Assembly: GCA_964472515.1 (NCBI GenBank)
Contig: CAYYMW010000001.1
Location: 33,528-97,527, forward strand
Reading direction: 5' to 3'
Length of the DNA: 64,000 nucleotides
From: an uncultured Verrucomicrobiota bacterium
Lineage (GTDB): Bacteria > Verrucomicrobiota > Verrucomicrobiia > Limisphaerales > J093
Made by a program: the position numbers and the translations under genes. The notes below the pieces were generated by a model. It was not told the origin of the DNA. It searched no databases and saw only the letters and a program-made list of their open reading frames with translations. Of this stretch, positions 12,412 to 42,384 are shown one piece after another. The number at the start of each line of letters is the position of its first letter. Position 1 is the stretch's first letter.

Positions 12412-12747
12412 TCAGCTCACGGCGATCAGTGAAACCCGTTCCCCCTTCTCATTGCGAGCGGTGCCATGGGCGTTAGGGTCCAGCACCGGGACACCGTCCA
12501 CCAGAAACACGTATTGGTGATAGCCGTGATGCAGTTGGACATGGGCCAGCCATGATCCATCCGGTTGACGTTGCATCGGGGTTTCCCAAGGCTGCCAGCC
12601 ATTGAAGTCTCCGATCAGGGCAACCCAGGCGGCCTGTGGGGCGATGCAGTAGAAGTTGACTGGCTTGATGTTGTGCTTCGCCGAGTAGCGATTGGGTCGG
12701 ATCACGAAAGGCAACTCGTAGGTTGGTGTTTCCAGTTTACTCATCAT
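12412..12747 (-). CDS. stand-alone CBM48 / AMPK-beta glycogen-binding-like domain protein (copy 1)
   Basis: 111 aa. 'VALIGDFNGWQPWETPMQRQPDGSW...HGYHQYVFLVDGVPVLDP' matches the AMPK1_CBM/E-set pattern. No signal peptide. Confidence 0.7.
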   Translation of the reverse strand: MMSKLETPTYELPFVIRPNRYSAKHNIKPVNFYCIAPQAAWVALIGDFNGWQPWETPMQRQPDGSWLAHVQLHHGYHQYVFLVDGVPVLDPNAHGTARNEKGERVSLIAVS

Positions 12748-12801
12748 TCATCGCTCCAGTCTGTCTCTTTGGGCGGACATCCGCGCACCGTGTTCATTTT
12801 T

Positions 12802-12830
12802 ACTACGGCGCGGCGAGGCCTTCTCCCTCA
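12802..12830 (-). promoter_or_regulatory. ECF-type promoter copy F (TGAGGGAGAAG-N12-CGTAGT) facing CBM48 gene
   Basis: Minus-strand variant with a spacer one nt longer, about 55 nt upstream of start 12747. Divergent from copy E. Confidence 0.35.
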
Positions 12831-12925
12831 CGACCGGCACCATGCGCCGGGAACTGGGTGAATCTGACGCTGAGAAACGGCGGCAGGATCTCACTGGAAG
12901 CGAACGGTGATGCCGGCGGAAGTGC

Positions 12926-12953
12926 TGAGGGGTTTCAGCTTCCGGCTCGTAAG
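12926..12953 (+). promoter_or_regulatory. ECF-type promoter copy E (TGAGGGGTTTC-N11-CGTAAG)
   Basis: Near-consensus copy 135 nt upstream of ATG 13088. Confidence 0.6.
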
Positions 12954-13087
12954 CAGTTTGTGAAAGACATGAACACCGTCGCTCGATCACTCGACTCTTG
13001 GCCGGAGATGTTTCGGCACACTGGCCCACGCCGGTGCGAGTTAGTGGCGGCGGGTTCAATAAACCAACCAAAGGAAAGACACACCGT

Positions 13088-13537
13088 ATGAATACAAGAA
13101 CTGTTATCACAACGAGCCAGCGCCTCGCGCCGGGGGTGGCAATCGCCCTGTTGCTCTTTGCCGCAACGGGATTACGGGCAGCGGACTTTGAGAAGGGAGC
13201 CACACGGCTGATGCGGATGGGCCGGCCCGAACCGGTGCCGGAGAAATCGGATTTCAAACCGATGTCCTGTCAGAAATGCAGGGACGTGGTCACGCAGGTG
13301 CCCGACTGGAGCGCCAAGGGCGGGCAGATCATGATGGCCGGGGGGCGTCCGACCAAGCCAGTGGTGCGGCACCAGTGCGAAGGCTGCGCGACCACACTCG
13401 AAGTCGTGGGGCATGGGAAAGCCAAGACCCAGCTGGCAAAGCACACCTGCACCAGTTGTGGCAGCGAAAACGAGGGGTGCTGCTCGACCAGCAAGGCCAA
13501 GCCGACCCTCACCAAAGGCATGGAGAAGGCGAAATAG
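13088..13537 (+). CDS. secreted 8-Cys (3x CxxC + CC) protein, family A
   Basis: Start at ATG 13088 gives a signal peptide ending '...LLLFAATGLRA'. Motifs 'MSCQKCRD', 'RHQCEGCAT' and 'KHTCTSCGSENEGCC'. Paralog of 30288-30740. Confidence 0.65.
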   Translation: MNTRTVITTSQRLAPGVAIALLLFAATGLRAADFEKGATRLMRMGRPEPVPEKSDFKPMSCQKCRDVVTQVPDWSAKGGQIMMAGGRPTKPVVRHQCEGCATTLEVVGHGKAKTQLAKHTCTSCGSENEGCCSTSKAKPTLTKGMEKAK

Positions 13538-13555
13538 GTCCAACCGATTCCTCGA

Positions 13556-14215: not shown

Positions 14216-14425
14216 CAGGCCATGCCTATTGATACCGATATGCCGCCCGGCTCTGGGGAAACCTCGGTCGCCGCGCCGCCGCTCCACGCCGTGAAAATGC
14301 CTTTCGCCGGTGGGCGAACGACCCTCTCCCGGTGTTGCTCCTACGGGAGGAAACCGCAGTGCTCCGGCTGGTCCAGGAGACGACGCCAACCACGGCGGGT
14401 GGTGTCAACAAGGCTCTGACTCCCG

Positions 14426-15136
14426 ATGGTTGCCGCGCTCCAACCTTCCCGCGCCGTCCTGGACGCGGCCGATGCGGATGACATGAACCGCTTGACGGCG
14501 GGTGATGATGAGGCTCTTCGCCGGCTGATGCTTCGGCATCAACGCCCGCTCTTGGACCGATTGTCGCGCATGCTGGGCAATGCCACAGAAGCGGACGAAC
14601 TTTTCCATGAGGCTTTTCTCAGGGTGTATCGCCATCGCCATTCTTTCCGCCCGGGGGCGCGGTTTCAGTCCTGGCTCTACACCATCGCTTTGAACCTGGC
14701 GCGGAACTGCCTGCGCACCCGCCGCCGCCAGCCCACTATTGTCCCGCTGCCTGATGACGATGCAGGCAACGGCGTCGTGACCGCAGCCGACTTGCTCGAT
14801 GCGAGTCCGGCACCAGAGGAAGTCCTGGCGCGAGCCGAGTGGTTGGCGGGCTTGGACGCCGCCCTCGCTGCCCTGCCGCCTCAATTGCGCGAGCCACTGG
14901 AACAGTTCGCCTTCGAGGATCGCGGGCAGGCTGACATTGCGGCGGGTTTGGGCTGCACCACCAAAGCCGTGGAAGCCCGTGTTTATCACGCCCGGCAGCA
15001 GGTGCTTCACGCGTTGGAAAGCTGCGCAAGAAAGTCTGAGGGGTTTCATCTTCCCCGGCGTAGGCTCAAGAGGAAGCCGCCTTCTGTGGGCAAAGATGCG
15101 AGTGCCCCGGCAGGTTGCGAAACAGAAAGACCATAG
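14426..15136 (+). CDS. ECF sigma factor (third copy), with ~40-aa non-conserved tail
   Basis: 236 aa. 'ELFHEAFLRVY', 'FQSWLYTIALNLARN' and 'GCTTKAVEARVYHARQQVL'. The tail after about aa 195 overlaps promoter copy D. Confidence 0.85.
   Translation: MVAALQPSRAVLDAADADDMNRLTAGDDEALRRLMLRHQRPLLDRLSRMLGNATEADELFHEAFLRVYRHRHSFRPGARFQSWLYTIALNLARNCLRTRRRQPTIVPLPDDDAGNGVVTAADLLDASPAPEEVLARAEWLAGLDAALAALPPQLREPLEQFAFEDRGQADIAAGLGCTTKAVEARVYHARQQVLHALESCARKSEGFHLPRRRLKRKPPSVGKDASAPAGCETERP
15037..15064 (+). promoter_or_regulatory. ECF-type promoter copy D (TGAGGGGTTTC-N11-CGTAGG)
   Basis: Near-consensus copy 88 nt upstream of ATG 15152, embedded in the 3' tail of the sigma ORF. Confidence 0.55.
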
Positions 15137-15151
15137 ACGTAAAACAAACAA

Positions 15152-15700: not shown

Positions 15701-15924
15701 AGCGCATCCACTGGACGAAACCGCACGGAACATGTGGTCGAGCGGTGTAACATCCCGATTACAGCCTGTGTCCAATTCAGCCGTGCGCCTTTGGCGCGCT
15801 GGCAGTGCCGTTTCCCCACGGGGGTTTCCCCACCCCCGACCTCCCTGGCGGCCCGCCAGCGCGCTCCGACCTCGGACTCTGTCCAGCGATGTGCCGCTTT
15901 GGGCTGCCTTCGATCCCATTTTGC

Positions 15925-15952: not shown

Positions 15953-15967
15953 CAAAGCAACCTGATC

Positions 15968-16438
15968 ATGCAACCCGCGCGTATTCTCGTGGTGGATGAC
16001 AATGCGCTTAGCCGCAGGGCGGTGGGCTTGTTCCTGGAGTGTCCGCGATACACCACGGTGTATGCGGCTGACGGGGAAACGGCGTTGAGCATTCTTCTTG
16101 GCCAGCCCTTTAACGCAGTGATCACGGATGTGGACATGCCCCGGATGGACGGCCTGGAACTGCTGCGCTACATCCATGATCGTTTGCCCTGGTTGCCGGT
16201 CATCATTGTCACCGGGAAGGACTCGGAGAACGTGCGTCAGGCGGCGTTTGCGTGCCACGCCGTTGCCGTGTTCAACAAGCCAGTGCGGCGGGATGCCTTG
16301 CTTGAAGCGCTCGCTCTAGGATTGCGGTGGGCGGCAGAGAGATCGTTGGAGCGTTGCCCGTCCGACCTTCCTGCAATCCTTCATTCCGTCGGCGAGTCTG
16401 AAAAGGTGACGGATTTGAACAGCCCCATACCAAGATGA
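15968..16438 (+). CDS. stand-alone response-regulator receiver domain protein
   Basis: 156 aa. 'ILVVDDN', 'VITDVDMPRMDG' and 'VIIVTG...FNKP' form the receiver signature. No output domain. Confidence 0.8.
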   Translation: MQPARILVVDDNALSRRAVGLFLECPRYTTVYAADGETALSILLGQPFNAVITDVDMPRMDGLELLRYIHDRLPWLPVIIVTGKDSENVRQAAFACHAVAVFNKPVRRDALLEALALGLRWAAERSLERCPSDLPAILHSVGESEKVTDLNSPIPR

Positions 16439-17778
16439 TCCGGTTTCCATGCGGCAAGACAGATACCGCGAGCAAAGCGCAGTCCTCGCAGCTCGTGCGG
16501 AATTGGCGGGCGTTCAGCTTCCTGGCCGTGATCGCCCTGGCGGCACTCTCGTTCTGGCAACCGGTCCGCCACTACGTGCTGACGGCGGGTATCCTTCGAT
16601 CCGACGCGCCTTCCGAATCCGCGCTGGCAGAGGCGGTCGAAGGCGCATCTGATCCAACTCAAGTCCTGCAATGTATCTGGCAAGCTGGCAGTCTCTCCGG
16701 ACGCGGTTTTGTGATCGGCTATTTGCAACGCAATCAGAAGCCCGATGCCTTGCTGGTCCGCCAAATGCAACCCGTGCTGGAGCAAGCTGCGTGGGATGCG
16801 GACCTCGACACACGGGAGGCTGCCTTCAGCGTGCTGGAGCAGCAGAAGAGCCCGTCATTGCGCCGCTGGTTGCGTCAGCAATTGAGTGACGCTGATCCGG
16901 CCGTGCGTGCCCTGGCGGTGCAGCACTTGTCACGCATTGCCAGCTCGAACGACGTGCCCGCAGTGGTCCGTCTGCTGGACGATCCTGATCCCAGAGTCGT
17001 GGCAGTCACCGGCACGCTCTTGAAGCGGGTTACAGGGCAAGATTTCGGTCTCAAAGCCACACAGGCGTTGCCCAAATTCGCCTGGCCGCTCTCGACACCT
17101 CCCGTCCCCGTGGACTGGGCGGGACTCAACCGTGGACGCGATGCCTGGCGGGAATGGTGGGCGGAGCACCAAGCCTGCTTCCCGTCCGAAGAGCACCCGG
17201 CCGAGTCAGCGCCTCACTTCTTCGCACGTCCGACGCCCGACTTTGCATTGGAGGACTTCGATGGAAGGCGTGTGCGGTTGACCGATTTTCGCGGCAAGGT
17301 AGTGCTCGTCAGTTTCTGGAATCTCACCAACGATCTCAGCACGGTAGATGAACCGGCTTTCCGCGCCTTGCTGCAAAATCGCGGCAACGATCTTGCCGTC
17401 CTCAGCATCGCCATAGACCCGGCCGTGTGGCCCGAGGAAAGTTGCGGTGACCATGGTGGCGGACACGGCGACGAACATGGGGATGCCCACGAACCCGCAC
17501 AGTCACATTGCCACAAAGCGCGGATGGACCTGGCCGGGACGAGAGCCGCAGCGCGTGCGCTCGCCGCGCGTCTGGCGGTGCGCCATCCGGTGCTCGTGGA
17601 TACGACCGCCGCGCTTGCACTCCGATATGCCGTCAACGATTTGCCCGCCTATGTGCTTCTGGACGCTCAAGGCAATTTGCGCCGCCGTGTGATTGGCAGC
17701 CGGACGGAAGCCACGTTTCGCGCGATGGTGGATAAGGTCGCGCCGACGGTTTTCCTGCCGACGTCAGGCAGGAACTGA
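16435..17778 (+). CDS. HEAT-repeat / thioredoxin-fold (TlpA-like) protein lacking the CxxC active site
   Basis: 447 aa with an N-terminal TM segment. HEAT-like 'DPAVRALAVQHL...LLDDPDPRVVAV'. Redoxin-like 'GKVVLVSFWNLTNDLS' sits where WCxxC is expected. His-rich insert 'CGDHGGGHGDEHGDAHEPAQSHCH'. Confidence 0.65.
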   Translation: MIRFPCGKTDTASKAQSSQLVRNWRAFSFLAVIALAALSFWQPVRHYVLTAGILRSDAPSESALAEAVEGASDPTQVLQCIWQAGSLSGRGFVIGYLQRNQKPDALLVRQMQPVLEQAAWDADLDTREAAFSVLEQQKSPSLRRWLRQQLSDADPAVRALAVQHLSRIASSNDVPAVVRLLDDPDPRVVAVTGTLLKRVTGQDFGLKATQALPKFAWPLSTPPVPVDWAGLNRGRDAWREWWAEHQACFPSEEHPAESAPHFFARPTPDFALEDFDGRRVRLTDFRGKVVLVSFWNLTNDLSTVDEPAFRALLQNRGNDLAVLSIAIDPAVWPEESCGDHGGGHGDEHGDAHEPAQSHCHKARMDLAGTRAAARALAARLAVRHPVLVDTTAALALRYAVNDLPAYVLLDAQGNLRRRVIGSRTEATFRAMVDKVAPTVFLPTSGRN

Positions 17779-17789
17779 AAAAGATTCTC

Positions 17790-17817
17790 TGAGGGTTTTC
17801 CCCCGCTGCGGAGTAAG
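17790..17817 (+). promoter_or_regulatory. ECF-type promoter copy C (TGAGGGTTTTC-N11-AGTAAG)
   Basis: Consensus -35 block, 112 nt upstream of small lipoprotein ORF 17929. Starts 12 nt after stop 17778. Confidence 0.55.
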
Positions 17818-17928: not shown

Positions 17929-18087
17929 ATGAACACCAGAAACATCTCGCGCAGTATCACCTTCGGTGCGGCGGCTGTCCTGATCGTCTTGGTCGGGTCG
18001 CTGTTCCTGGCCGGGTGCGCAAGTAGCGGTGACAGTGGCAGCGCTGGCAGCAGTTCCAGCCAGCCGAGCCAGCAGCACCACCACTGA
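17929..18087 (+). CDS. small lipoprotein with Ser/Gly-rich linker and C-terminal HHH (52 aa, below the ORF-track cutoff)
   Basis: Hand-translated as MNTRNISRSITFGAAAVLIVLVGSLFLAGCASSGDSGSAGSSSSQPSQQHHH. Lipobox 'LAGC'. Confidence 0.45.
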   Translation: MNTRNISRSITFGAAAVLIVLVGSLFLAGCASSGDSGSAGSSSSQPSQQHHH

Positions 18088-18123
18088 CGGCAAAGCGGTT
18101 GCGCAAACACAAGCGAGTCAGCC

Positions 18124-18435
18124 ATGAAGAAGCGAATCACCCACCAGCACGGCGCGGGCGCGAAAGCGCCGAGCGCTACTCGCTTTGAGTTGGTCTGCCC
18201 CGAAGCCCGCGCGGTTTTCCTGGCTGGCTCGTTCAATGACTGGCATCCCACCACATTCCCCATGATCGCCGGAGACGGTGGAAAATGGGTGAAAGAACTG
18301 GCCCTGCCGCCTGGCCGCTACGAATACCTGTTCGTGGTGGACGGTGTGTGGGTGGCGGATTCGGCCGCGTCGGAGTCTGTGCCCAATCCGCACGGGGGCG
18401 TGAACTCGGTCGTTGTCGCGTCGGCCACAACTTAG
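18124..18435 (+). CDS. stand-alone CBM48 / AMPK-beta-like domain protein (copy 2)
   Basis: 103 aa. 'VFLAGSFNDWHPTTFPMIAGDGGKWVKELALPPGRYEYLFVVDGVWVADS'. Basic N-terminus and no signal peptide. Confidence 0.75.
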   Translation: MKKRITHQHGAGAKAPSATRFELVCPEARAVFLAGSFNDWHPTTFPMIAGDGGKWVKELALPPGRYEYLFVVDGVWVADSAASESVPNPHGGVNSVVVASATT

Positions 18436-18453: not shown

Positions 18454-18954
18454 ATGAACCTCTCCTCGGAACATCTTCACGTCCTGCTCAACCACCTGCC
18501 CTTGGTGGGGCTGATGCTGGCAGCCGTGGTCTTGGTCGTTGCGCTCGCGCTCCGAAATCGTCCGACGATTGTTTTGGGCCTGGCCCTGGTTGGTCTGACG
18601 GCTGGGACAGCCTGGCCGGTGATCGAGTCCGGCCAAAGCAGCTATGTCCGGGTGCGGGAACTGGCCGACGAGGAAGGGAAGGCCCACTTGCGACACCACA
18701 TGGTGTTGGCGGAGCGCTGGGACAAGTTGTATTACGCAACGGCGGCGGTGGCTGTGCTGGGATTGCTGGCGGCATGGAAGTGGCCGCGCGGATTCCACGC
18801 GCTGGCTGTTCTGGCGGCACTACTCGCCGCGGCCAGCCTGGTGGCGGGCGCTGTCATTGCAGAAGCGGGTGGCAAGGTCCGGCATCCCGAGTTCCGCAGT
18901 GGCCCGCCTGCTCCGGAACATCACGAGGACGGCGATCACGACCACAGCCACTGA
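18454..18954 (+). CDS. polytopic membrane protein with His-rich C-terminus, family B
   Basis: 166 aa. 'LLNHLPLVGL', about 4 hydrophobic segments, 'GGKVRHPEFR', and tail 'PEHHEDGDHDHSH'. Paralog of the frameshifted 29336-29834. Confidence 0.65.
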   Translation: MNLSSEHLHVLLNHLPLVGLMLAAVVLVVALALRNRPTIVLGLALVGLTAGTAWPVIESGQSSYVRVRELADEEGKAHLRHHMVLAERWDKLYYATAAVAVLGLLAAWKWPRGFHALAVLAALLAAASLVAGAVIAEAGGKVRHPEFRSGPPAPEHHEDGDHDHSH

Positions 18955-18998: not shown

Positions 18999-19045
18999 CC
19001 TATCATCACCGGTGAATCACTATTTCCATGCAGTTCATCACAAAC

Positions 19046-20542
19046 ATGAGTAAGAGCAAATGGTATTGGCTCTTCGCCGGGGTCGGCACTGTTGCCGCAG
19101 CGATGCTATTTTCCGGCTGCAGGGGCCTCGCCGTTAAGGGCGAGAAGGAGGCGCGGCAGAAGGTCAAGGACGTCAGCGAGCAATACCGCCCGAAGGGCCA
19201 GAAGCCGGAACTGCCCGCTCTGACCAGCCAGTCCAGCCTCAGCAACTTCCTCACCTACGCGCTGCTGAATCAACCCAAGGTCGAGGCCTCGTACTTCGAC
19301 TGGGTCGCTTCAGTGGAGCGAATTACGGTGCAACGCTCCAAACCGGACCCGCAACTCACCTTCCAGATGGACATCCAGGACGTGGTCACCTCCCTCATGC
19401 CGGGCCTCATGATGAGCTTTCCGGGAATGGGCAAGCTCCGCGCCGCCGGAGCCGTCGCCGCGGCGGCCAGCCAGGGCGGTTACTTCACGTTCAGGGCAGC
19501 TTCACTCCAGAGCGCTTACGACGTGAAGCGGACTTACTACCGCCTCTATTTCCTGGATGAAAAAATTCGTGTCAACCGCGAAAACCTCGGCCTCCTGCAA
19601 GAGTTGGAGCGCCTGGCCCGCTCTCAAAATGAAGTCGGCAAGGCAACCTTGCAGGATGTCTTGCGCGCGCAAATCGAACAGGAACGCCTCAACAACGAGA
19701 TCGCCAACCTTGAGGATTCCCGCGCGCCCCTGCTGGCCCAGTGGCAGGCCGCTCTCGGCATCCAACCGAACGACCCGGCGCCTCCAGTCCCGACCCGCTT
19801 TGAATCCACCCCGCTCGACGTGGCGGCGGACAAGTGGCTGGAGCAGGCGCTGGCGGAGAACACTCGCCTCAAGGCTATGGCCGCCGACGTCCACGCCGCC
19901 GAGGCCGCCATCCGCCTCGCCTACAAGGCGCGCATGCCGGACACTAGCGTCGGTTTCATGGCCGACGCCAAGATGAGTCCGGTCCTCTACCGCCCGTGGG
20001 GCACCGTCAGCATCCCGTTGTGGCGCGACAAGCTCGCCGCCCAGGTGGCCGAGGCCCAGGCCAACAAGCGCGCGGGCGAGGCCCGCCTCACCGCGGAACA
20101 GATCGGCTTGGCCGTGGACGTCGCCGAACGCGCCTTTGTTTATCGCGAGACCACGCGCAATCTGAACGTCCTCCAGAAGACGTTGCTGCCCAAGCAGCGC
20201 CAGTCCCTGGAACTGGCCCGCTCGGCCTACCTCTCCGGGCAGGTGGACTTTCTGAATGTGACCGAAGCGGAGCAGACCTTGCTGAGATTCAACCTCGACG
20301 AAGTCGAGGCCCGCACGCAGCGGGAGCTGTCGCTCGCCGAGCTTTCCCTGATCATGCAGGGCATGCCCCCCTCCGGCGGAGGCGCCACGGGCATGGAAAT
20401 ATCCTCGCCGGGCATTGGCGCTGGCAAGAATATGGGCGGCGGGGCGTCCTCCAGCGGCATGGGTTCCAGCGGCGGCACCATGCTGCCCGGAAACTCCGCA
20501 CCGCCTCCGAAGAAGATGAACCAGGGAGGGATGAGCCAATGA
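19046..20542 (+). CDS. cusC: outer-membrane efflux lipoprotein (TolC/CusC family) with Met/Gly-rich tail
   Basis: Start at ATG 19046 gives the lipobox 'MLFSGC'. Two OEP-like repeats. C-terminal ~60 aa 'MQGMPPSGGGATGMEISSPG...GMGSSGGTM...NQGGMSQ'. Confidence 0.8.
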   Translation: MSKSKWYWLFAGVGTVAAAMLFSGCRGLAVKGEKEARQKVKDVSEQYRPKGQKPELPALTSQSSLSNFLTYALLNQPKVEASYFDWVASVERITVQRSKPDPQLTFQMDIQDVVTSLMPGLMMSFPGMGKLRAAGAVAAAASQGGYFTFRAASLQSAYDVKRTYYRLYFLDEKIRVNRENLGLLQELERLARSQNEVGKATLQDVLRAQIEQERLNNEIANLEDSRAPLLAQWQAALGIQPNDPAPPVPTRFESTPLDVAADKWLEQALAENTRLKAMAADVHAAEAAIRLAYKARMPDTSVGFMADAKMSPVLYRPWGTVSIPLWRDKLAAQVAEAQANKRAGEARLTAEQIGLAVDVAERAFVYRETTRNLNVLQKTLLPKQRQSLELARSAYLSGQVDFLNVTEAEQTLLRFNLDEVEARTQRELSLAELSLIMQGMPPSGGGATGMEISSPGIGAGKNMGGGASSSGMGSSGGTMLPGNSAPPPKKMNQGGMSQ

Positions 20543-34138: not shown

Positions 34139-35467
34139 ATGAAGCAAAGAATTGATTCAACAGTTTTGCGTTCCTTGGCCTGCTCGCTGGCATTCAGCGG
34201 CGGCTGCTTCTTGGGATTCGCTGCCCAAGCGGCTGATTCGCCCGCACCACCGCCACCGGTGAGTTCGGCGACCAATGTCCTGACGCTGGACGGAGCGGTC
34301 GGCCTCGCGCTGGAGAACAATCCTGAACTGCGCGCGTCCAGCGGGCGCATAGATGCGGCCACCGGACGCGCCTATCAGGCCAAGCTCTGGACGAACCCGG
34401 AATTGACCCTGAGCGCGGAGGATTGGCCCACGAGCGGCGGGGGTTTCTCCGATGCCAAGAAGCTGGTGGGGGTGGCGCAGACTGTGCCGTTTCCCGGCAA
34501 GAAGAAGCTCGACCGCCAGATCGGCGTGTCCGGCATCCGATTGTCCGAAGCGGAGTTGAGCCTCCGGCGCGTCGAACTGGTCCGCGACGTAAAGACGACT
34601 TTTTATCAGGTGCTCGCGGCGGAGCGATTGGTGGACGTGGCCGGTGAGTTGGTGAAAGTGGCGGAGTCCTCCGCCACCACCGCCCGCAAGCGGGTGGCCG
34701 CCGGAGCGGCTGCTGACCAGGAACAGTTGCGGGCGGAGATCCCGCTGGAGCAAGCCCGGACCGAACTTTCGGGTTTTCAACGCGAGTTGGTGACAGCTCG
34801 GCAGACCTTGGCGTTGCTCCTCGGGCGTCCGGACCTGAGCGAAACTCCCGTGGCGGGTTCGTTGGCGGAAACCGCCAACCTGAACCTGCTCGAACACGGA
34901 CCTGAGCAATGGCTCGCAAATCATCCCAGCGTGGTCGCGGTGAAGAGCAGTCGTGACCGCGCCGAACTGGAACTGCGCCGGTCTCGGCTCGAACCGTATC
35001 CTGACGTCAGATTCGGCCTCGCAGGTGGACGAGAGTCTGGTCCGGCCGGTGGGGGCATCGTGCAGTTTGGTCTTTCCGTGCCACTGCCAATCATTGACCG
35101 CTCGAAAGGGAAGAAGCAGGAGGCGCAGGCAAATGTTCGCATCGCGGAGGCCGACCAGGTCGCCGTCGAGCAACGGCTGTTGCGCGAGTGGGGCACGGCG
35201 AGCAAACGGTTTCGCACCGCCGTGGAGCAGGTCGCCAGCTACCGCGAACGGATTCTGCCCAAGGCGGACGAAGCCTTGCGGCTGGTGCAGGCCGGCTTCG
35301 AGCAAGGCAAGTTCGGCTTCATTGACCTGCTCGACACGCAACGCACCACCGCCGAAGCGCGTCTCGCGTATCAGCAGAAGCTGCTCGAACTGAGCGTCGC
35401 CCAAGCCGAACTGGAGTCGCTCGCAGCGGGAGGCATTCAACCGCAACCAGGCAAGACTCAACCGTGA
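34139..35467 (+). CDS. czcC: outer-membrane efflux protein (TolC/CzcC family)
   Basis: Start at ATG 34139 gives a signal peptide. Two OEP repeats with typical 'NPEL...' and 'LL..QR' segments. Confidence 0.85.
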   Translation: MKQRIDSTVLRSLACSLAFSGGCFLGFAAQAADSPAPPPPVSSATNVLTLDGAVGLALENNPELRASSGRIDAATGRAYQAKLWTNPELTLSAEDWPTSGGGFSDAKKLVGVAQTVPFPGKKKLDRQIGVSGIRLSEAELSLRRVELVRDVKTTFYQVLAAERLVDVAGELVKVAESSATTARKRVAAGAAADQEQLRAEIPLEQARTELSGFQRELVTARQTLALLLGRPDLSETPVAGSLAETANLNLLEHGPEQWLANHPSVVAVKSSRDRAELELRRSRLEPYPDVRFGLAGGRESGPAGGGIVQFGLSVPLPIIDRSKGKKQEAQANVRIAEADQVAVEQRLLREWGTASKRFRTAVEQVASYRERILPKADEALRLVQAGFEQGKFGFIDLLDTQRTTAEARLAYQQKLLELSVAQAELESLAAGGIQPQPGKTQP

Positions 35468-35480
35468 AAGGGAGGACACC

Positions 35481-35819
35481 GTGCGCATCATAACGAGACA
35501 TACCTTCATTGCTCTGGCGGTTCTGTTCCTCACCATGATGGCCAGCCCAGCATGGGCGCGCCTGCCGAGGCCCATTCAGGCGACGGGCACTGCGGTTTTT
35601 GTGGACCACGACACGCAGTCGCTGGTGTTCAAAGCTGGGAAAGACAAGAAGCCGCTGGTGCTCGATTGGAACAAGGACACCGATTTCCTCAAAGACGGCC
35701 AGGCTACTACCGCCGCACAACTCAAGAGCGGCATTTCCGTCTCGATTCACTACCGCAAGCCCACCTTTGGAAGACCCTTGTTGACCGAAGTCTTTTGGAA
35801 TTCTCAAACGACACACTGA
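35481..35819 (+). CDS. small secreted protein, family D
   Basis: 112 aa with a GTG start and signal peptide '...MMASPAWA'. 'FVDHDTQSLVFKAGKDKKPLVLDWNKDTDF'. Paralog of 41694-42029. Confidence 0.55.
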   Translation: MRIITRHTFIALAVLFLTMMASPAWARLPRPIQATGTAVFVDHDTQSLVFKAGKDKKPLVLDWNKDTDFLKDGQATTAAQLKSGISVSIHYRKPTFGRPLLTEVFWNSQTTH

Positions 35820-35849
35820 ACCCCTTAACACACTGACTCGAATTTTAGC

Positions 35850-36062
35850 ATGAAGACGAAAATGACTCTGAAACTCGCCGCGCTGGCGAGTGTTGTGGCC
35901 GTGGCGCTGTTCGCCGGTTGCAAGAAGCAGGAAACCCATAGCGAGCATGATGGTCATGACCACTCCGGCCATGCTCCCGCCAAAACCAACTCGCCCGCCG
36001 CAGATGATCATCAGGGCCATAACCACGGCCCGGGCGAGCACGCTCCTGCACCCGCCAAGTAA
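35850..36062 (+). CDS. His-rich small lipoprotein
   Basis: 70 aa with lipobox 'LFAGC', followed by 'HSEHDGHDHSGH...DDHQGHNHGPGEH'. Confidence 0.6.
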   Translation: MKTKMTLKLAALASVVAVALFAGCKKQETHSEHDGHDHSGHAPAKTNSPAADDHQGHNHGPGEHAPAPAK

Positions 36063-36087
36063 ACAAGTGAACGACAAACAAAAGACT

Positions 36088-37365
36088 ATGACAACACTGA
36101 CGATTTCCAAGATGACCGTTCTGCCGCTGGTGGCGGCGGTGACTCTACTGACGGCCTGCTCCAAGCAGAGTGAACCCGCAGATGACGGACACGGGCACGG
36201 CGCAGGCGGACATGGCGAGGCCAAAGCCCATGTCGAAACCAAGGATGGCGTGGAGATGTGTACCGAGCACAACGTGCCGGAAGCGCAATGCGGCATCTGC
36301 AAACCGCAACTGGCGGGGACACTGAAACCTGGCGAGTCGGCGAAGGTGCGACTGGCCGCCAAAGACTCGGCCGCCATCGCCGGCGTGCAGACGGACACTC
36401 CGACCGTAGGGACGATTGCCGACGCGGTGGAGTGCTACGCCGAACTGGCGTTCAATCAGAACAAGCTGGCCCAGATTGCCGCGCCGGTGGGCGGTATCGT
36501 GCAGGCCGTGGAAGTGGACCTCGGCAGCAAGGTCGAGGAGAAGCAGTGCGTGGCGAACATCTGGTCGGCGGCCATTGCGGAAGCGGTGGCCAAATCGGTG
36601 CTGACGCATCAGACGCTGGACCGCGAGCGCAAGCTGCGCGCCGACCGCGTGACCTCGGAGAAAGACTTGCAACAAGCCGAGGCGGAACATCGCTCCGCCT
36701 GCCAGCAAGCGCGCACGTTCGGTTTCAGCGAGGAAGACATCAACCGGATGGGGGGGAAGCCCAATGACCCGGTGTATCTGGAAGTGCGCGCGCCTTTTGC
36801 GGGTGAAATCGTCGAGCGCAACGTCGTGCGTGGTGCGCTGGTGGAAGCCGGCAAATCGTTGTTCACACTGGCGGATCGCTCCACCATGTGGGCGATGCTG
36901 AACCTTCCTGAGTCGGCGTTGGCCCGCGTGAAAGTAGGGCAAACGGTGGAACTGAGGGTGGAATCGCTGCCGGGCCAGATGTTCACCGGGAAGCTGACGT
37001 GGATCGGGGCGGAAGTGGACGAGAAGAGCCGCATGGCTCGCGCTCGCGCCGAGGTGGCGAACCCCGATGGGTTGCTCAAGTCCAGGATGTTCGCCCAAGC
37101 CCGCATCCTGACACGCAACGCGGAGGGCGCACTGTTGTTGCCGTCCTCGGCCATTCAGCGCATGGAAGGGAAGAGCTATATCTTCGTGAAAGTGGAGGAC
37201 GATTTATTTGACGCTCGCGCGGTCCGTCTCGGGGCCAAGTTCGACGGCAAGGTGGAAATCGTCGAGGGCCTGAAGGCGCAAGAAGTGGTGGCGGTGAATC
37301 ATGCCTTCCCGCTCAAGTCCGCCTTCCTCATTTCCCGGCTGGGCGCGGGTTGCGCGGATGACTAG
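36088..37365 (+). CDS. czcB: RND periplasmic adaptor (CzcB-like)
   Basis: Start at ATG 36088 gives lipobox 'LLTAC'. His-rich 'DDGHGHGAGGHGE' and 'CTEHNVPEAQCGICKP' precede the MFP core. The track extension from 35890 overlaps the previous gene. Confidence 0.85.
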   Translation: MTTLTISKMTVLPLVAAVTLLTACSKQSEPADDGHGHGAGGHGEAKAHVETKDGVEMCTEHNVPEAQCGICKPQLAGTLKPGESAKVRLAAKDSAAIAGVQTDTPTVGTIADAVECYAELAFNQNKLAQIAAPVGGIVQAVEVDLGSKVEEKQCVANIWSAAIAEAVAKSVLTHQTLDRERKLRADRVTSEKDLQQAEAEHRSACQQARTFGFSEEDINRMGGKPNDPVYLEVRAPFAGEIVERNVVRGALVEAGKSLFTLADRSTMWAMLNLPESALARVKVGQTVELRVESLPGQMFTGKLTWIGAEVDEKSRMARARAEVANPDGLLKSRMFAQARILTRNAEGALLLPSSAIQRMEGKSYIFVKVEDDLFDARAVRLGAKFDGKVEIVEGLKAQEVVAVNHAFPLKSAFLISRLGAGCADD

Positions 37366-37399
37366 GCCGAGAGCGACCATCACCTGAAAGACCTATACC

Positions 37400-40300
37400 A
37401 TGCTTAACTGGCTCATCAAGACCTCGCTCAAGAACCGTCTGCTCGTCGCCATCCTGGCGTCGGTGCTCGTCCTGGTGGGCGGGCGCTCGCTCACGAACCT
37501 GCCGATTGATGCCTTCCCGGACACGACGCCGGTGCAGGTGCAAATCAACACCACGCTGCCCTCCCTCAATGCGGAGGAGGCGGAAGCACAAGTCACCATT
37601 CCGGTGGAACTGGCCATCAGCGGCCTGCCCGGCCTGAACAACATCCGCTCCGTGTCGAAGTTTGGCCTGTCGCAAGTCGTGGCCACGTTCGACGATGACA
37701 CGAGCATCTTCCGCGCGCGGCAGCTAATCACGGAGCGGCTGCAAACCATCGAGTTGCCGCCGGGCATTGCGCGACCGCAGCTTGGCCCCATCTCCACGGG
37801 GTTGGGCGAGGTGTTCCATTACGTGGTCCGCTCGGACAACACCAACCGGACGCTCCTGGAATTGCGCGAGATTCAGGATTGGGTGGTGAAGCCGCAGTTA
37901 CGCAAGGTGCGGGGCGTGGCGGAAGTCAACACCTGGGGCGGATTCGAGAAGCAGTTCCACGTCATCACGGAGCCGCAACGGCTGGTGAAATACGGTCTGA
38001 CGCTGGAACAACTCTTTGAGGCGCTGGAGGCGAACAACCAGAACGTGGGCGGCGGCCAGGTGGTGCGCAGTGGGGAATCGCTCCTGGTGCATGGTTTGGG
38101 TCTGACCACGAACGTGCAGGAAATCGGCAGCATCGTCATCGCGTCGTACGACGGGACGCCGGTGCGCGTGCGCGACGTAGCCGAAGTAAAGGTGGACCAC
38201 GAAATCCGGCGCGGAGCAGTCACGGGCGCGGGTAAAGGGGAAATCGTGCTGGGGCTGGGCTTCATGCTCATGGGCGAGAACAGCGCGGTGGTCACGCATG
38301 GCTTGAAAGACAAACTCGCCGAAGTGCAAAAGACGCTGCCCAAAGACGTGGTGGTGGAGGTGCTCTATGACCGCACGGAACTGGTGGATAACGTCATCGA
38401 AACCGTCAAACACAACCTGCTGGCGGGTGCGTTGCTGGTCATCGCCATCTTGTTTGCCTTCCTCGGCAATCTGCGGGCCGGCTTGGTGGTGGCAGCGTCC
38501 ATCCCGCTCTCAATGCTGTTCGCCGGTGATTTGATGTTGCAGGCCGGCATCTCGGCCAGCTTGTTGAGCCTGGGTGCGGTTGACTTCGGCCTCATCGTGG
38601 ATGGCTCGGTGGTGATGGTCGAAAATGCCATGCGTCGCCTGGCGATGCGCCAGCATGAACTGGGACGTCTGCTAACCAAGGAGGAACGCGAGGAAACGCT
38701 GACCAGCGCGTCTCTGGAAGTGGCGCGGCCTGTGGCGTTTGGCGTCGGCATCATCCTCATCGTGTTCCTGCCCATCCTCGCGCTGGAAGGCGTGGAAGGA
38801 AAACTGTTCAAGCCGATGGCGCTGACGATGATTTTCGCGCTGGCCGGTTCGCTGATTCTGGCGCTGACGCTCACGCCGGTGCTGGCGGCGTTGTTTCTGC
38901 CCAAGCAGGTCAAGGAGAAGGAGCCGTGGCTGGTGCGGCTGTCGCATCGTCTTTACGAGCCGGCGCTGGGACTGGCGCTGCGATTCCGCGCGCTCGTCCT
39001 GGTGGGCGCGCTGGCGCTGCTGGTGGGCGTGCTCCTTCTGGCCTCACGCATGGGCGGTGAATTCCTGCCCAAGCTGGGCGAGGGCGCCATCGTGGGCACC
39101 ACCGTCCGGCTGGCGGGCGTCTCGGTTGAAGAAGCGGTGGCCTACAACACCCGCATTGAAAAGCTGCTGCTAGCCGAGTTCCCTGACGAGATCACCAACA
39201 TCTGGTCGCGGCTGGGCAGCGCGGAAATTGCCACCGACCCGATGGGCATTGAACTGACGGATTTCTTCCTGGCACTCAAGCCGCGCGCGCAATGGAAAAA
39301 AGCCCGCACCCAGACGGAGTTGGTGGATAAGATGCGCGAGCTGTTTACCAAATTTCCCGGCATGACGGTGGCGTTCAGCCAACCGATCGAGATGCGCTTG
39401 AACGAAATGATTGCGGGCGTGCGGTCGGATGTTGCCATCAAAATCTATGGCGACGACTTGGAGACGCTCCGCCGCCTCTCCGACGAGGTGCAAGCGATCT
39501 TGGGCGGCATCTCCGGGCGGGGCGAAGTGACCGGCGAACAACTCGTTGGTCAACTCATTTTGCAGGTGCGGGTGGACCCACAAGCCATCGCCCGCTATGG
39601 CGTGCCCACGCGCAACGTGCTCAACGTGGTGGAAGCCGTCGGCAGCCGCAAGGTCGGCGAAATCCGTGAAGGTCAGCGCCGCTTTTCTTTAGTGGTGCGG
39701 ATGCCGGATCGGCAACGCACCGACCCCGACGCGCTCGCGGCCACGCTGATTCCGACGGCGACCGGCTCGGTCCTGCCGCTCAACCAAGTGGCGCAAGTGG
39801 TGGAAACGGAGGGGCCGTCCACCATCAACCGCGAGTGGGGCCGGCGCCGCATCACCGTTCAATGCAACGTGCGCGGGCGTGACGTGGGCAGCTTTGTGGC
39901 CGAAGCACAGAAGAAGATAGCCGACCTGGTGAAACTGCCTGAAGGCTACAGCATCGAATGGGGCGGCCAGTTCGAGAACATGCAGCGGGCCAACGCCAAG
40001 CTCATGTTTGTGGTGCCGATGGCGCTGGGGCTGATTTTCGTGCTGCTCTACTTCAGCCTGAAATCGCTGCGCGACGTATTCATCGTGGCCACGGGCATTC
40101 CCTTGGGCGCGGTGGGCGGCGTGCTGGCGTTGTGGTTGCGCGGGATGCCCTTCACCGTGAGCGCCGCCGTCGGCTTCATCGCCCTCAGCGGTGTGGCCAT
40201 TCTCAACGGTTTGGTGCTGGTGACGTTCATCAAACAGAAGCTCGATGCGGGCGAACCGCTGGAGCAGGCCGTGCGGGAGGGATGTATGGTGCGCCTCCGT

Positions 40301-40537
40301 CCAGTCCTGATGACGGCGCTGGTGGCAGCGGTGGGCTTCATCCCAATGGCGGTCAATGTGGGTGTGGGCGGTGAAGTGCAACGCCCGCTGGCGACGGTAG
40401 TCATCGGCGGCATCTTCACGAACACGTTGCTGACCTTGCTGGTGCTGCCGACGCTCTACACGACGTTCCGGCGCAAGAAGCCCGCTGAAGTGCCAGCCGA
40501 GCCGCAGACCCTGACCCCGGAGAACTCAATAATATGA
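37400..40537 (+). CDS. czcA: heavy-metal efflux RND pump, CzcA-like
   Basis: 1045 aa. N-terminus 'NRLLVAIL...PIDAFPDTTPVQVQINT' is of the CzcA type. 12-TM RND architecture. Confidence 0.95.
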   Translation: MLNWLIKTSLKNRLLVAILASVLVLVGGRSLTNLPIDAFPDTTPVQVQINTTLPSLNAEEAEAQVTIPVELAISGLPGLNNIRSVSKFGLSQVVATFDDDTSIFRARQLITERLQTIELPPGIARPQLGPISTGLGEVFHYVVRSDNTNRTLLELREIQDWVVKPQLRKVRGVAEVNTWGGFEKQFHVITEPQRLVKYGLTLEQLFEALEANNQNVGGGQVVRSGESLLVHGLGLTTNVQEIGSIVIASYDGTPVRVRDVAEVKVDHEIRRGAVTGAGKGEIVLGLGFMLMGENSAVVTHGLKDKLAEVQKTLPKDVVVEVLYDRTELVDNVIETVKHNLLAGALLVIAILFAFLGNLRAGLVVAASIPLSMLFAGDLMLQAGISASLLSLGAVDFGLIVDGSVVMVENAMRRLAMRQHELGRLLTKEEREETLTSASLEVARPVAFGVGIILIVFLPILALEGVEGKLFKPMALTMIFALAGSLILALTLTPVLAALFLPKQVKEKEPWLVRLSHRLYEPALGLALRFRALVLVGALALLVGVLLLASRMGGEFLPKLGEGAIVGTTVRLAGVSVEEAVAYNTRIEKLLLAEFPDEITNIWSRLGSAEIATDPMGIELTDFFLALKPRAQWKKARTQTELVDKMRELFTKFPGMTVAFSQPIEMRLNEMIAGVRSDVAIKIYGDDLETLRRLSDEVQAILGGISGRGEVTGEQLVGQLILQVRVDPQAIARYGVPTRNVLNVVEAVGSRKVGEIREGQRRFSLVVRMPDRQRTDPDALAATLIPTATGSVLPLNQVAQVVETEGPSTINREWGRRRITVQCNVRGRDVGSFVAEAQKKIADLVKLPEGYSIEWGGQFENMQRANAKLMFVVPMALGLIFVLLYFSLKSLRDVFIVATGIPLGAVGGVLALWLRGMPFTVSAAVGFIALSGVAILNGLVLVTFIKQKLDAGEPLEQAVREGCMVRLRPVLMTALVAAVGFIPMAVNVGVGGEVQRPLATVVIGGIFTNTLLTLLVLPTLYTTFRRKKPAEVPAEPQTLTPENSII

Positions 40538-40842
40538 AAGAGATCAAAGCCATCATTCAACCGTTCATGCTGGAGCGGGTGATTAACGCCCTGCATCAAA
40601 TCAAGGGCCTGCCTGCCGTGACGATTTCGGCGGCGCACGGCTTGTCCGTCGAGCGCGGTGCTTTCGACCAAGTGGCCAAGACCAAGCTTGAAATCATGGT
40701 GCCGGACGAGCAGGTCGAGCAACTCGTCGAAGTCATTCAGAAAGCCGCGCATACCGGCAATCCCGGCGACGGGCGCATCTTTGTCCTGCCCGTCGAGACG
40801 ACGGTGAAAATCCGCACCGGCGAGCGAGGCGCGTGGCGCTGA
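40534..40842 (+). CDS. PII-like signalling protein with shortened T-loop
   Basis: 102 aa. 'MKEIKAIIQPFMLERV' and 'GNPGDGRIFVLPVETTVKIRTGERG' match GlnB/GlnK. The T-loop region 'AAHGLSVERGAFDQVAK' is about 10 aa shorter and lacks the Tyr51 context. ATGA overlap with czcA. Confidence 0.8.
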   Translation: MKEIKAIIQPFMLERVINALHQIKGLPAVTISAAHGLSVERGAFDQVAKTKLEIMVPDEQVEQLVEVIQKAAHTGNPGDGRIFVLPVETTVKIRTGERGAWR

Positions 40843-41092
40843 GAGCTATGGACCGCAACTCGACCATGCAACGGCCAGTCCGCGAGCCGCCTCGCTGGGC
40901 GATTCCGATTGAGTTCGACGACGATTTGTCCTTTTGCGTTGTCCTCGCACTCATGTCGAAGCAGAGCGCTGCCCGGACCCTTTCCCCAGCACTCCAACCG
41001 CGCACTTTCGTTCGGTTCGAGAGGAACCGAGGTCGCGGCGGGTGTTGGGGACCATTGAACCTCCAAAGAAAGGACTGAACACGGCCAAGAAA

Positions 41093-41380
41093 GTGAGAAC
41101 CAACCGCACACAAACCCAAATCGTCCGCCTCGAGTTCCAGCGCGAGGGCGCCCAAGCGGTGTCCATCGCCGGAACCTTTAACGATTGGCGCCCCGACGCC
41201 ACGCCGATGATTGCGCTGGACGACGGACGCTGGGTCAAGGAATTGGCCCTGCCGCCCGGTCGTTACCAATATCAGGTCGTGGTGGACGGCGCGTGGCGGC
41301 ACGATCCGGCGGCGGTCGGGCAAGTGCCCAATCCGTTTGGCGGCTTCAACTCCGTGCTTGTGGTGGCAACAATACCATGA
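41093..41380 (+). CDS. stand-alone CBM48 / AMPK-beta-like domain protein (copy 3; start uncertain)
   Basis: 'VSIAGTFNDWRPDATPMIALDDGRWVKELALPPGRYQYQVVVDGAWRHDP'. GTG 41093 was chosen by analogy with paralog N-termini. The ORF opens at 40934. Confidence 0.6.
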   Translation: MRTNRTQTQIVRLEFQREGAQAVSIAGTFNDWRPDATPMIALDDGRWVKELALPPGRYQYQVVVDGAWRHDPAAVGQVPNPFGGFNSVLVVATIP

Positions 41381-41697
41381 AAAGGCACTTCCGCATACAT
41401 CACCCGCCGTCAGAAGTGCAGATGAATTCACTGAACATCCAACTCCAATCCATTTTGAAGTGCCCGAACTGCGGCTTCCGCGTCGAGGAGACGATGCCAA
41501 CAGATGCCTGCGTCCATTTCTACGATTGCCCGCGGTGCGAGACACGGCTCAAGCCAAAACCCGGCGACTGCTGCGTCTTCTGCTCCTATGGAACGGTCAC
41601 GTGCCCGCCCCACCAGGCTAACGAGGATTGTTGTGGGGCAGGTGGTGCGAGGGAAGAAGCGAAAAAGGAAATGAGTCAACGAGGCCATGATTTATGA
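41377..41697 (+). CDS. GDCCVxC-motif Cys-rich protein
   Basis: Start at ATG 41377, with an ATGA overlap. 'CPNCGF...CVHFYDCPRCETRLKPKPGDCCVFCSYGTVTCPP'. About 106 aa with 12 or more Cys. Confidence 0.65.
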   Translation: MKRHFRIHHPPSEVQMNSLNIQLQSILKCPNCGFRVEETMPTDACVHFYDCPRCETRLKPKPGDCCVFCSYGTVTCPPHQANEDCCGAGGAREEAKKEMSQRGHDL

Positions 41698-42029
41698 AGA
41701 CGACCGCCACTTCCAGAGTTGTGGTTGGAGTGTTGCTGAGCGCCGCCTGTCTGGCATCGCCCTCGGCATCCGCAATACAGCCTCGCGCACGACCAGCAGA
41801 GGGAAAGATTTTGTTCGTGGACCACGACACCCGGAGCTTTGTTTTCAAACCGGACAAGAAACGACCGCTGGTGCTGGACTGGACCAGGAACACCGTGTTC
41901 GTCCACAACTGGCAACTGACCAACGCCCTCGCCCTCCGGGAGGGCTTGTCAGGCACAGTCTATTATCACTCGCCCCTGTTCGGAAAGCCGTATGTCACAA
42001 AGGTCATCTGGGAGAACGGCAAGAAGTGA
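41694..42029 (+). CDS. small secreted protein, family D
   Basis: 111 aa with a signal peptide. 'FVDHDTRSFVFKPDKKRPLVLDWTRNTVF'. ATGA overlap with the upstream gene. Confidence 0.55.
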   Translation: MKTTATSRVVVGVLLSAACLASPSASAIQPRARPAEGKILFVDHDTRSFVFKPDKKRPLVLDWTRNTVFVHNWQLTNALALREGLSGTVYYHSPLFGKPYVTKVIWENGKK

Positions 42030-42048
42030 AGCACAAGTGTTGAACTGC

Positions 42049-42384
42049 ATGAAAACAAACAGGAAGTCCAAACAGAAGAAAGACGGGGTAGTCCCACAGA
42101 GAATCCGAATCGAGTTCCACGATGAGCACGCCCGGCAGGTGAGCTTGGCGGGCACGTTCAACGAATGGCGGCCGAATGCCACGCCTATGCTCACGCTAGG
42201 TGGCGGTCGCTGGGTGAAAGAACTGGTGTTGCCACCGGGCCGCTACGAATACCTGTTTATTGTGGACGGCGAATGGCAGTCGGACCCGGCTGCGGTGGAA
42301 GAAACGCCGAATGTTTACGGCAGCCTCAATTCGGTGTTGAACGTGCCGGGGTCTGCGCGGGGCACGAAAGGGACTGAACCATGA
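42049..42384 (+). CDS. stand-alone CBM48 / AMPK-beta-like domain protein (copy 4)
   Basis: Start at ATG 42049 (MKTNRKSKQKKDG...). 'VSLAGTFNEWRPNATPMLTLGGGRWVKELVLPPGRYEYLFIVDGEWQSDP'. Confidence 0.75.
   Translation: MKTNRKSKQKKDGVVPQRIRIEFHDEHARQVSLAGTFNEWRPNATPMLTLGGGRWVKELVLPPGRYEYLFIVDGEWQSDPAAVEETPNVYGSLNSVLNVPGSARGTKGTEP

Follow-up and report, generated by a model that had tools for sequence, protein, structure and literature searches.

Stand-alone CBM48 proteins linked to heavy-metal efflux operons on a conjugative element of an uncultured Verrucomicrobiota bacterium

Single-domain CBM48 proteins and their closest described systems

Family 48 carbohydrate-binding modules (CBM48) have, to our knowledge, a single known activity, the binding of storage glucans. 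Heavy-metal efflux operons of the resistance-nodulation-division (RND) type are usually described as sets of pump genes, periplasmic helpers and two-component or extracytoplasmic-function (ECF) regulators. Four genes for small stand-alone CBM48 proteins (i.e. A, B, C and D) were examined in a stretch of 64,000 nt (the window) from an uncultured Verrucomicrobiota bacterium (GenBank assembly GCA_964472515.1, contig CAYYMW010000001.1, positions 33,528 to 97,527), which carries a metal-resistance block on a conjugative element. The lineages of B, C and D are linked to heavy-metal RND systems, P-II-like (P-II) proteins and small Cys-rich proteins in a clade-specific and facultative manner. Literature searches returned no account of bacterial CBM48 proteins that stand alone, nor of any link between them and metal efflux or nitrate transport; in the four genes, an established domain occurs in a stand-alone form and a genomic setting that are both new.

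The closest described relative is the carbohydrate-binding module (CBM) of the AMPK beta subunit (PF16561; structures 1Z0M, 1Z0N, 2F15 and 4YEE), which gave the best match to A–D in both sequence and fold. Cyclodextrin bound to AMPK beta1 is stacked against Trp100 and Trp133 and hydrogen-bonded by Asn150 and Lys126, with Leu146 and Thr148 lying alongside (PMC9788615). B–D resemble this module in having equivalents of Trp100, Trp133 and Asn150 and in their probable cytoplasmic location; the AMPK module also packs against a protein partner, as in the holo-enzyme structures among the fold matches. Unlike AMPK beta, A–D are bacterial, stand-alone, multi-paralog proteins encoded in transporter operons, have no C-terminal alpha/gamma-binding domain and no kinase nearby, and do not conserve Lys126. 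Plant adaptors of the PTST/FLO6 type are, like A–D, non-enzymatic CBM48 proteins; they recruit a partner protein to an alpha-glucan by means of two conserved Trp residues, both of which are needed by PTST for starch binding (PMC4339375). PTST acts on plastid starch and has a coiled-coil partner-binding domain, whereas A–D have only a basic tail of ~20 residues. The N-terminal CBM48 or 'isoamylase early set' modules of GlgB, GlgX, TreZ and pullulanase (PF02922) fall in the same Pfam family, but A–D, at 103–112 aa, are without the catalytic domain of these glycoside hydrolase family 13 (GH13) enzymes.

Two groups of small proteins from metal-efflux operons also invite comparison. In a passage of PMC7726332 (citing Sant'Anna 2009), the gene for the P-II-like protein PII-NG follows czc genes and its product is presumed to have a sensory or regulatory role. 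PII-NG is, like the CBM48 proteins, a small cytoplasmic non-transporter protein of heavy-metal RND operons, and its gene directly adjoins C and the genes of many C/D-type relatives; it differs in fold and ligands and is a near-constant operon member, whereas CBM48 is optional. Periplasmic beta-sandwich metallochaperones of the CusF/CopC type are small beta-rich accessory proteins of metal-efflux operons; they are exported and bind metal at defined Met/His/Trp sites, whereas A–D have no signal peptide and B–D no conserved ligand set.

In Pfam profile searches, all four proteins exceeded the gathering thresholds for both AMPK1_CBM (PF16561; 41–49 bits against 26.8) and CBM_48 (PF02922; 26–35 bits against 22.4), and no second Pfam domain was detected at E <= 1. 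The polypeptides stop 5–15 residues past the CBM and so contain neither the C-terminal alpha/gamma-interaction domain of AMPK beta nor a catalytic domain. A profile of D-type relatives matched the AMPK beta2 CBM (E = 1.7e-16). AlphaFold models of D and A (pLDDT of 85 and 84, respectively, with both cores >94) were superimposed on the AMPK beta1/beta2 CBM with a root-mean-square deviation of 1.3–1.9 Å and a target TM-score of 0.88 (0.8–0.9 over 1z0m, 1z0n, 4yee and 4yef); as modelled, the fold of A and D is the AMPK-beta-type CBM beta-sandwich. By profile, fold and, for B–D, site residues, A–D are members of the CBM48/AMPK1_CBM family and are neither AMPK beta subunits nor GH13 enzymes, which agrees with the earlier recognition of four stand-alone AMPK-beta-like proteins at this locus. 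A profile built from relatives found exactly these four copies, and no further ones, in the six-frame translation of the window. The coordinates in the earlier note were exact for A, B and D; for C, the end (41380) stood whilst the start (41093) did not, as there is no ATG at this position. C has an uncertain start: a GTG at 41042 is used in the public annotation, and the mechanical open reading frame (ORF) begins at 40934. The sequence pattern once given for all four proteins was found in B, C and D but not in A, which has LHHGYHQY for LPPGRYEY and Pro for the second Trp.

Identities of D to C, B and A were 52, 47 and 28%, respectively, indicating that the paralogs are old and not recent duplicates. 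Values of dN/dS of 0.13–0.25 (at dS 0.7–1.2) for the CBM domain indicated purifying selection; these came from distant pairs, the nearest orthologs (93–95% identical) having too few substitutions to inform. Homologs of these mini-proteins are spread over several phyla. As judged from their sequences, A–D are real genes, each encoding a single CBM48 domain with a short basic tail. These N-terminal tails have, in D-type relatives, a median of 18 residues with 6 K/R and 1 D/E. The maximal 12-residue hydropathy was <=1.4 for A–D as compared to 2.6–2.8 for neighbouring secreted proteins, and a hydrophobic signal segment was absent from A–D and from 61 D-type and 112 A-type relatives. A cytoplasmic location is suggested by such basic, non-hydrophobic N-termini; A–D are probably cytoplasmic, as had been presumed from the lack of a signal peptide.

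The sugar site in B, C and D and its loss in A

Alignment with AMPK beta showed that B, C and D retain equivalents of Trp100, Trp133, Gly147 and Asn150. These four residues were invariant in all non-A members of the metal clades and in two clades from other genomic contexts described below (14/14 proteins of the nitrate clade and 13/13 of the Mqn clade). Binding of alpha-glucan is therefore the default expectation for B–D, and the evidence favours its retention. The earlier note had leaned towards a role outside carbohydrate binding and had named intact carbohydrate-site residues, together with binding to glycogen only, as counter-evidence; the first of these was found in B, C and D and speaks against such a role. 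A metal-binding Ig-like fold, the other function that had been put forward, is unlikely for B–D because alignments of these proteins and their clades contained no conserved Cys/His/Met cluster, with one conserved Met only.

Protein A belongs to a distinct subfamily of 376 cluster-level relatives, nearly all of which are stand-alone proteins of 100–120 aa. In A, as throughout the A-type subfamily, Trp133 is replaced by Pro and Asn150 by Val. Half of the sugar site is lost, and A is, on this alignment, the family fold without the canonical glucan platform; its ligand is probably something other than glucan. The subfamily is highly conserved, with a mean column identity of 64% in its alignment (A2). 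Near-invariant features are a RYSAK motif ahead of the domain, Cys34, and His74 and His77 (in LHHGHH), and a SLIAVS motif is conserved at the C-terminus. In the window, A is a lone gene on the minus strand, with a convergent TRASH-like gene on one side and, on the other, a plus-strand copy of a promoter-like motif that points away from it. A-type genes in three other genomes were lone genes outside metal-efflux operons in every case, being convergent with a tadA-like deaminase gene in two and lying near VWA-domain and non-ribosomal peptide synthetase genes in the third, where a weak DUF3347 match occurs ~3 kb away. Placement in metal-resistance operons, which had been claimed for all four genes, holds for B, C and D but not for the A-type genes of these three genomes. 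A-type and standard-type CBM48 genes were found within a few kb of each other at five loci (L016, L057, L062, L067 and L078).

Genomic linkage of the B, C and D lineages and its possible meaning

D has 70 cluster-level relatives, again nearly all stand-alone and of 100–120 aa. One genome per species was scanned for the sequence pattern, giving at least 583 coding matches, of which the best 79 loci, containing 101 genes, were kept. These loci were mostly from Verrucomicrobiota, with some from Acidobacteriota, Myxococcota, Omnitrophota and Geobacteraceae. Neighbouring ORFs were clustered and annotated with Pfam, and a neighbour-joining tree was constructed. Clades of the tree tracked genomic context. 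In the C/D and B clades, the neighbours were genes for outer-membrane efflux proteins (OEP), membrane fusion proteins (MFP) and RND pumps, multicopper oxidases, P1B ATPases, TRASH proteins and HEAT-repeat/thioredoxin-like (HEAT-redoxin) proteins. An RND-system gene was present within 10 kb at 13 of the 22 loci of these clades as compared to none of the 32 loci of the nitrate and Mqn clades (Fisher p = 4.5e-7). The linkage of orthologs to efflux genes, for which the earlier note had proposed a survey, is strong and clade-specific for the lineages of B, C and D.

The arrangement of the linked genes was variable. The order RND-PII-CBM was found in the window, at L009, L089 and L090 and in the cultured Fontisphaera persica (L088; CP116615, ~1,173,221–1,193,538, beside an integrase gene); RND-CBM-PII at L015; CBM-PII-OEP-MFP-RND at L013; CBM-OEP-MFP-RND at L019, L021, L022 and L023; OEP-MFP-response regulator-x-CBM-TRASH-PII-RND at P0018 (on 21 contigs); and RND-PII-x-CBM-x-P1B ATPase at P0030 (beside three integrase genes). 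With at least six gene orders, inherited synteny alone is unlikely to explain the link between CBM48 and RND genes.

Other clades occupy other contexts. In a 13-locus nitrate clade (L031, L035, L041, L044, L046, L047, L050, L052, L053, L054, L056, L059 and L072), the CBM48 gene lies between the permease and ATPase genes of an ABC transporter with no RND gene nearby; the nitrate/cyanate operon reads NMT1-type binding protein, permease, CBM48, two ATPases, cynS, porin, major facilitator superfamily transporter, Fe-S protein and reductase. In a 19-locus Mqn clade (including L024, L029, L032, L038, L039, L040, L043, L064, L066 and L079), the CBM48 gene is immediately upstream of mqnA (VitK2_biosynth/MqnA-like), with housekeeping neighbours encoding UvrD, PNPase and a GFO/IDH oxidoreductase. 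A direct link of the family to glycogen metabolism was found in one genomic setting only: at L017, L069 and L085, the last two of which represent the sister lineage of B, the CBM48 gene is followed directly by an alpha-glucan phosphorylase gene (PF00343). P-type ATPase genes with an apparent link to CBM48 in Myxococcota and Geobacteraceae (L048 and L076) were not counted as metal evidence, since these ATPases, judged by their N-terminal sequences alone, do not resemble the P1B heavy-metal type.

The repeated occurrence of B–D relatives at the head, at the tail or within heavy-metal RND efflux operons of Verrucomicrobiota suggests an accessory role, which is a prediction from sequence. As a tentative proposal, held at rather less than even confidence, B–D would be optional accessory adaptors that bind glucan, contact a partner from their operon and are co-expressed with the pumps. 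They would bind cytoplasmic alpha-glucan (i.e. glycogen) through the Trp/Trp/Asn platform, whilst another face or the basic tail would touch a partner encoded in the same operon. The efflux machinery, or its cytoplasmic sensors, might in this way be coupled to the glycogen store, much as the AMPK CBM and PTST act on their partners. Co-expression with the pump would be provided for B by a repeated ECF-type motif and for C and D by membership of a translationally coupled gene string.

Several points weigh against this proposal. The glucan binding, the partner and the phenotype of B–D are predictions, and glycogen production by the host and a physiological logic joining glycogen to metal efflux are presupposed. 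The AMPK Lys126 position varies in the alignment, being Leu, Arg or Gln, and an aromatic residue stands at the Leu146 position, so that the affinity and specificity for glucan may differ. At least one metal-island gene was nearby for 23 of the 27 genes of the C/D and B clades, but the metal-island genes were identified by similarity to window proteins, and related islands were thus partly counted as independent. The nitrate ABC, mqnA and tadA contexts imply that the family-level function is generic and that the metal link may be one of regulatory convenience. A reciprocal test was made with 80 metagenome loci (L091–L170) around relatives of the window P-II protein (47–97% identical). An RND gene was directly upstream of the P-II gene in nearly all of those with upstream sequence, but a CBM48 gene occurred within the flanks at only one, which is essentially the window itself, and an obligate pairing of P-II and CBM48 was rejected on this basis. 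L091, with CzcA and P-II proteins 92 and 97% identical to those of the window, has neither C nor D; in two further loci that are nearly identical to the window, L006 and L007 (P-II 100% identical), C is missing and GDCCVxC-unk111-D (genes described below) is kept. CBM48 is, from these counts and natural losses, an optional add-on that, wherever present, lies near P-II and the pump. The association is firm and was not to be expected, and with such a facultative distribution the role may be a modest one.

That optional status would also suit a possible, if doubtful, alternative in which these are glycogen proteins that bind or modulate glycogen (e.g. shielding granules or recruiting phosphorylase in a general stress response) and ride on metal islands as passengers with no action on efflux. 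The intact sugar site, the copies adjoining alpha-glucan phosphorylase genes, the several non-metal contexts of the family and the natural variants of czc-P-II operons that drop C alone all agree with it. A passenger would not be expected to show the clade-specific RND linkage, nor to lie inside operons whose stop and start codons overlap, or even between MFP and RND genes; the survival of the association across the different gene orders and the retention of four old paralogs on one conjugative element argue in the same direction. A glycan-independent adaptor is rather unlikely: here an Ig-like module would use its Trp residues to contact a protein or other ligand and would serve as a regulatory subunit of RND, P-type ATPase and nitrate ABC transporters. 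The lack of an effector domain, the recurrence inside three kinds of transporter operon and the unconserved Lys126 fit this alternative, as does the A-type, which is the most conserved type although its Trp133 and Asn150 equivalents are lost, and which shows that the fold can be selected beyond canonical glucan binding. The invariant exposed residues of the standard type, however, are exactly the glucan contacts of AMPK, and the CBMs that match best in sequence and structure bind glucans and have structures determined with cyclodextrins.

A metal-binding beta-sandwich acting as a cytoplasmic metallochaperone or sensor is credible only for A and, taken overall, very improbable. The surroundings are saturated with metal genes, Cys34, His74 and His77 of the A-type are near-invariant, often with an extra His in LHHGHH, and the genes are frequently coupled to those of small Cys-rich TRASH/GDCCVxC proteins; but no Cys or His and only one Met is conserved in the clades of B, C and D, A-type genes in the three other genomes lie outside metal-efflux operons, and AMPK beta also has His at the position of His77, which may thus be structural. 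Chance ORFs or misannotated fragments of branching-enzyme genes, for which the high-G+C DNA full of spurious ORFs and the names of relatives might be cited, are refuted by the purifying selection, by hundreds of homologs that are full-length and stand-alone and whose starts and stops are conserved, and by the nature of the GlgB matches. NCBIfam GlgB models matched ~60 N-terminal residues locally at 11–32 bits, far below cutoffs of 460–1284, and no GH13 catalytic region adjoins any of A–D. The names '1,4-alpha-glucan branching enzyme' and 'glycoside hydrolase family 13' given to relatives in some public sources are consequently over-annotations, and thousands of database entries are misnamed in this manner; the Fontisphaera homolog is named 'isoamylase early set domain-containing protein' by NCBI.

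Returning to the proposal of glucan-binding adaptors, a more elaborate version, and an improbable one, would make the mini-CBM48 proteins glycogen sensors paired with a P-II-like adenylate sensor, gating costly transport according to carbon and energy reserves. Nitrate ABC transporters and P-type ATPases would be the partners in other clades, and the A-type would have exchanged glucan for another ligand, possibly a metal at Cys34/His74/His77. If true, the pairing of a glycogen sensor with P-II would be a kinase-free bacterial counterpart of AMPK logic, in which a glycogen-binding beta subunit is combined with a nucleotide-binding gamma subunit. A link between glycogen and efflux would, if real, tie carbon reserves to metal homeostasis and offer a tractable bacterial model of non-catalytic CBM48 signalling; the presence of the family within nitrate-assimilation transporter operons suggests that the principle may reach beyond metals. 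The RND operons of Verrucomicrobiota carry a recurrent set of small cytoplasmic genes (i.e. P-II, TRASH, GDCCVxC, receiver-only regulator and CBM48), of which CBM48 is the least expected member because storage-glucan binding is all that it is known to do.

Organization of the window

The metal-resistance block lies between the TrwB/TraG and ParA genes (609–3145) and the TrwC relaxase gene. It contains three ECF sigma factor genes, genes for DUF3347, multicopper oxidase and cation diffusion facilitator proteins, three OEP-MFP-RND sets and genes for two P1B ATPases with YHS/HMBD or HMA domains. This arrangement supports the mobile-element context that had been described, and B, C and D are, as claimed, inside metal-resistance operons, with a Cus-type RND system after B and a Czc-type operon before C and D. 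DNA related to the window was mostly from Verrucomicrobiota and largely from Limisphaerales, and a tblastn search of PLSDB plasmids yielded no match to D. Coordinates are collected in Table 1.

Table 1. Positions of CBM48 genes, neighbouring genes and sequence motifs in the window
Feature	Position (nt)	Strand	Remarks
Type IV coupling protein TrwB/TraG	609-2096	-	Conjugative context
Copies of promoter-like motif	8396-8424, 9370-9398, 9863-9891, 12925-12953, 15036-15064, 17789-17817	+	Motif scan
ECF sigma genes	10815-11411, 14426-15136, 26086-26625 (minus strand)		
TRASH-like small Cys-rich genes	12103-12363, 25841-26071	+	72% nucleotide identity over 61 nt
A, stand-alone CBM48 mini-protein	12412-12747	-	111 aa; sugar-site-degenerate A-type subfamily
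HEAT-repeat/thioredoxin-like protein (AhpC-TSA, ResA/TlpA-like)	16435-17778	+	Recurrent partner upstream of CBM48 genes
Promoter-like motif CTGAGGGNTTTC-N11-CGTARG	17789-17817	+	307 nt upstream of B
Lipoprotein-like ORF, putative	17929-18087	+	52 aa; uncalled; signal peptide, LAGC lipobox, C-terminal QQHHH; between motif and B
B, stand-alone CBM48 mini-protein	18124-18435	+	103 aa; head of Cus-type OEP-MFP-RND operon
His-rich membrane protein	18454-18954	+	Downstream of B
OEP	19028-20542	+	Downstream of B
CusB with HMBD repeats	20539-22506	+	Downstream of B
Cus-type RND	22522-25812	+	Downstream of B; motif GGIAIAIGAMVDAVIIMIEN
Czc-type operon (OEP, periplasmic unk112, CzcB, CzcA, P-II)	34139-40842	+	Upstream of C/D
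unk112	35481-35819	+	Small secreted protein between OEP and CzcB genes
CzcA	37400-40537	+	Czc-type RND; motif DFGLIVDGSVVMVEN
P-II	40534-40842	+	Overlaps czcA stop
C, stand-alone CBM48 mini-protein	41042-41380	+	112 aa if GTG 41042 is the start; 199 nt 3' of czcA-linked P-II gene
GDCCVxC-domain Cys-rich protein	41377-41697	+	106 aa; NF041374, 98.5 bits against cutoff of 40
unk111	41694-42029	+	Small secreted protein, signal peptide, no family match; between GDCCVxC gene and D
D, stand-alone CBM48 mini-protein	42049-42384	+	111 aa; 19 nt after unk111; stop overlaps start of lipoprotein gene
Lipoprotein	42381-42755	+	After D
Receiver-only response regulator	42781-43188	+	Closes C-D gene string
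TrwC-type relaxase/helicase	54848-57700	+	Conjugative context

The gene string that starts with C continues through GDCCVxC, unk111, D and the lipoprotein gene to the receiver-only regulator gene. ATGA overlaps were found at three junctions (C/GDCCVxC, GDCCVxC/unk111 and D/lipoprotein), and the translational coupling earlier ascribed to C and D within the czcA tail operon applies at these junctions but not between P-II and C, which are separated. The unk111 and unk112 proteins are paralogous (46% identical), and in RND operons at L021, L023, L026, L089 and L090 their relatives adjoin CBM genes. The GDCCVxC gene is uncalled in the ENA record of the contig and called in the Logan assembly L005. 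Scans for sigma-70 promoters and terminators around C and D were at background level, and no repeated upstream element was found at C.

At B, the next gene of the Cus-type operon begins 18 nt downstream on the same strand. The B orthologs at L016 and L028 preserve the order HEAT/redoxin-CBM-His-rich membrane protein-OEP-MFP-RND, and a HEAT-redoxin gene followed by a CBM gene recurs at L014, L016, L020 and L028 with gaps of 188–351 nt. The CTGAGGGNTTTC-N11-CGTARG motif had six matches in the window (five good and one weak), all on the plus strand, and none of 100 shuffles reached six. It looks like an ECF-sigma regulon signal and may, by inference from its sequence and repetition, act as a promoter. 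Of the regulon promoters earlier placed before at least two of the CBM48 genes, the one at B stands; A is divergent, with the motif on the other strand. A common promoter for A–D was rejected, as the motif precedes B only and the copy near A is on the opposite strand. A public minus-strand gene call at 14405–15049 is family-less, whereas the overlapping plus-strand ORF (14426–15136) clearly encodes an ECF sigma factor (Sigma70_r2 and r4_2), indicating that the public call is probably wrong.

Further observations were made on the wider family and on the block. TRASH-type Cys-rich genes were present within ~150 nt of CBM48 genes at L013, L016, L017, L020, L025 and L178 (the last with a 4-nt overlap). 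L020, from a Limisphaerales metagenome-assembled genome, has six mini-CBM48 genes in 20 kb, alongside genes for ECF sigma, P-II, TRASH and HEAT-redoxin proteins, and is a denser paralog cluster than that of the window. A profile search of 1.8 billion representatives matched 20,470 cluster representatives, the strongest of which have 3–20 tandem copies of the domain (P0071–P0220); a common tandem class is ~480 aa long with four copies. HMBD sequences form direct repeats in the DNA (66–85% identity), with three copies in CusB (22048–22416) and two in a P1B ATPase gene (27075–27270). A Laminin_G_3 (concanavalin-like) gene (30803–31816, plus strand) lies downstream of a P1B ATPase gene and just upstream of the multicopper oxidase gene, and a RadC-like JAB-domain gene (58074–58700, minus strand) is located near the relaxase gene.

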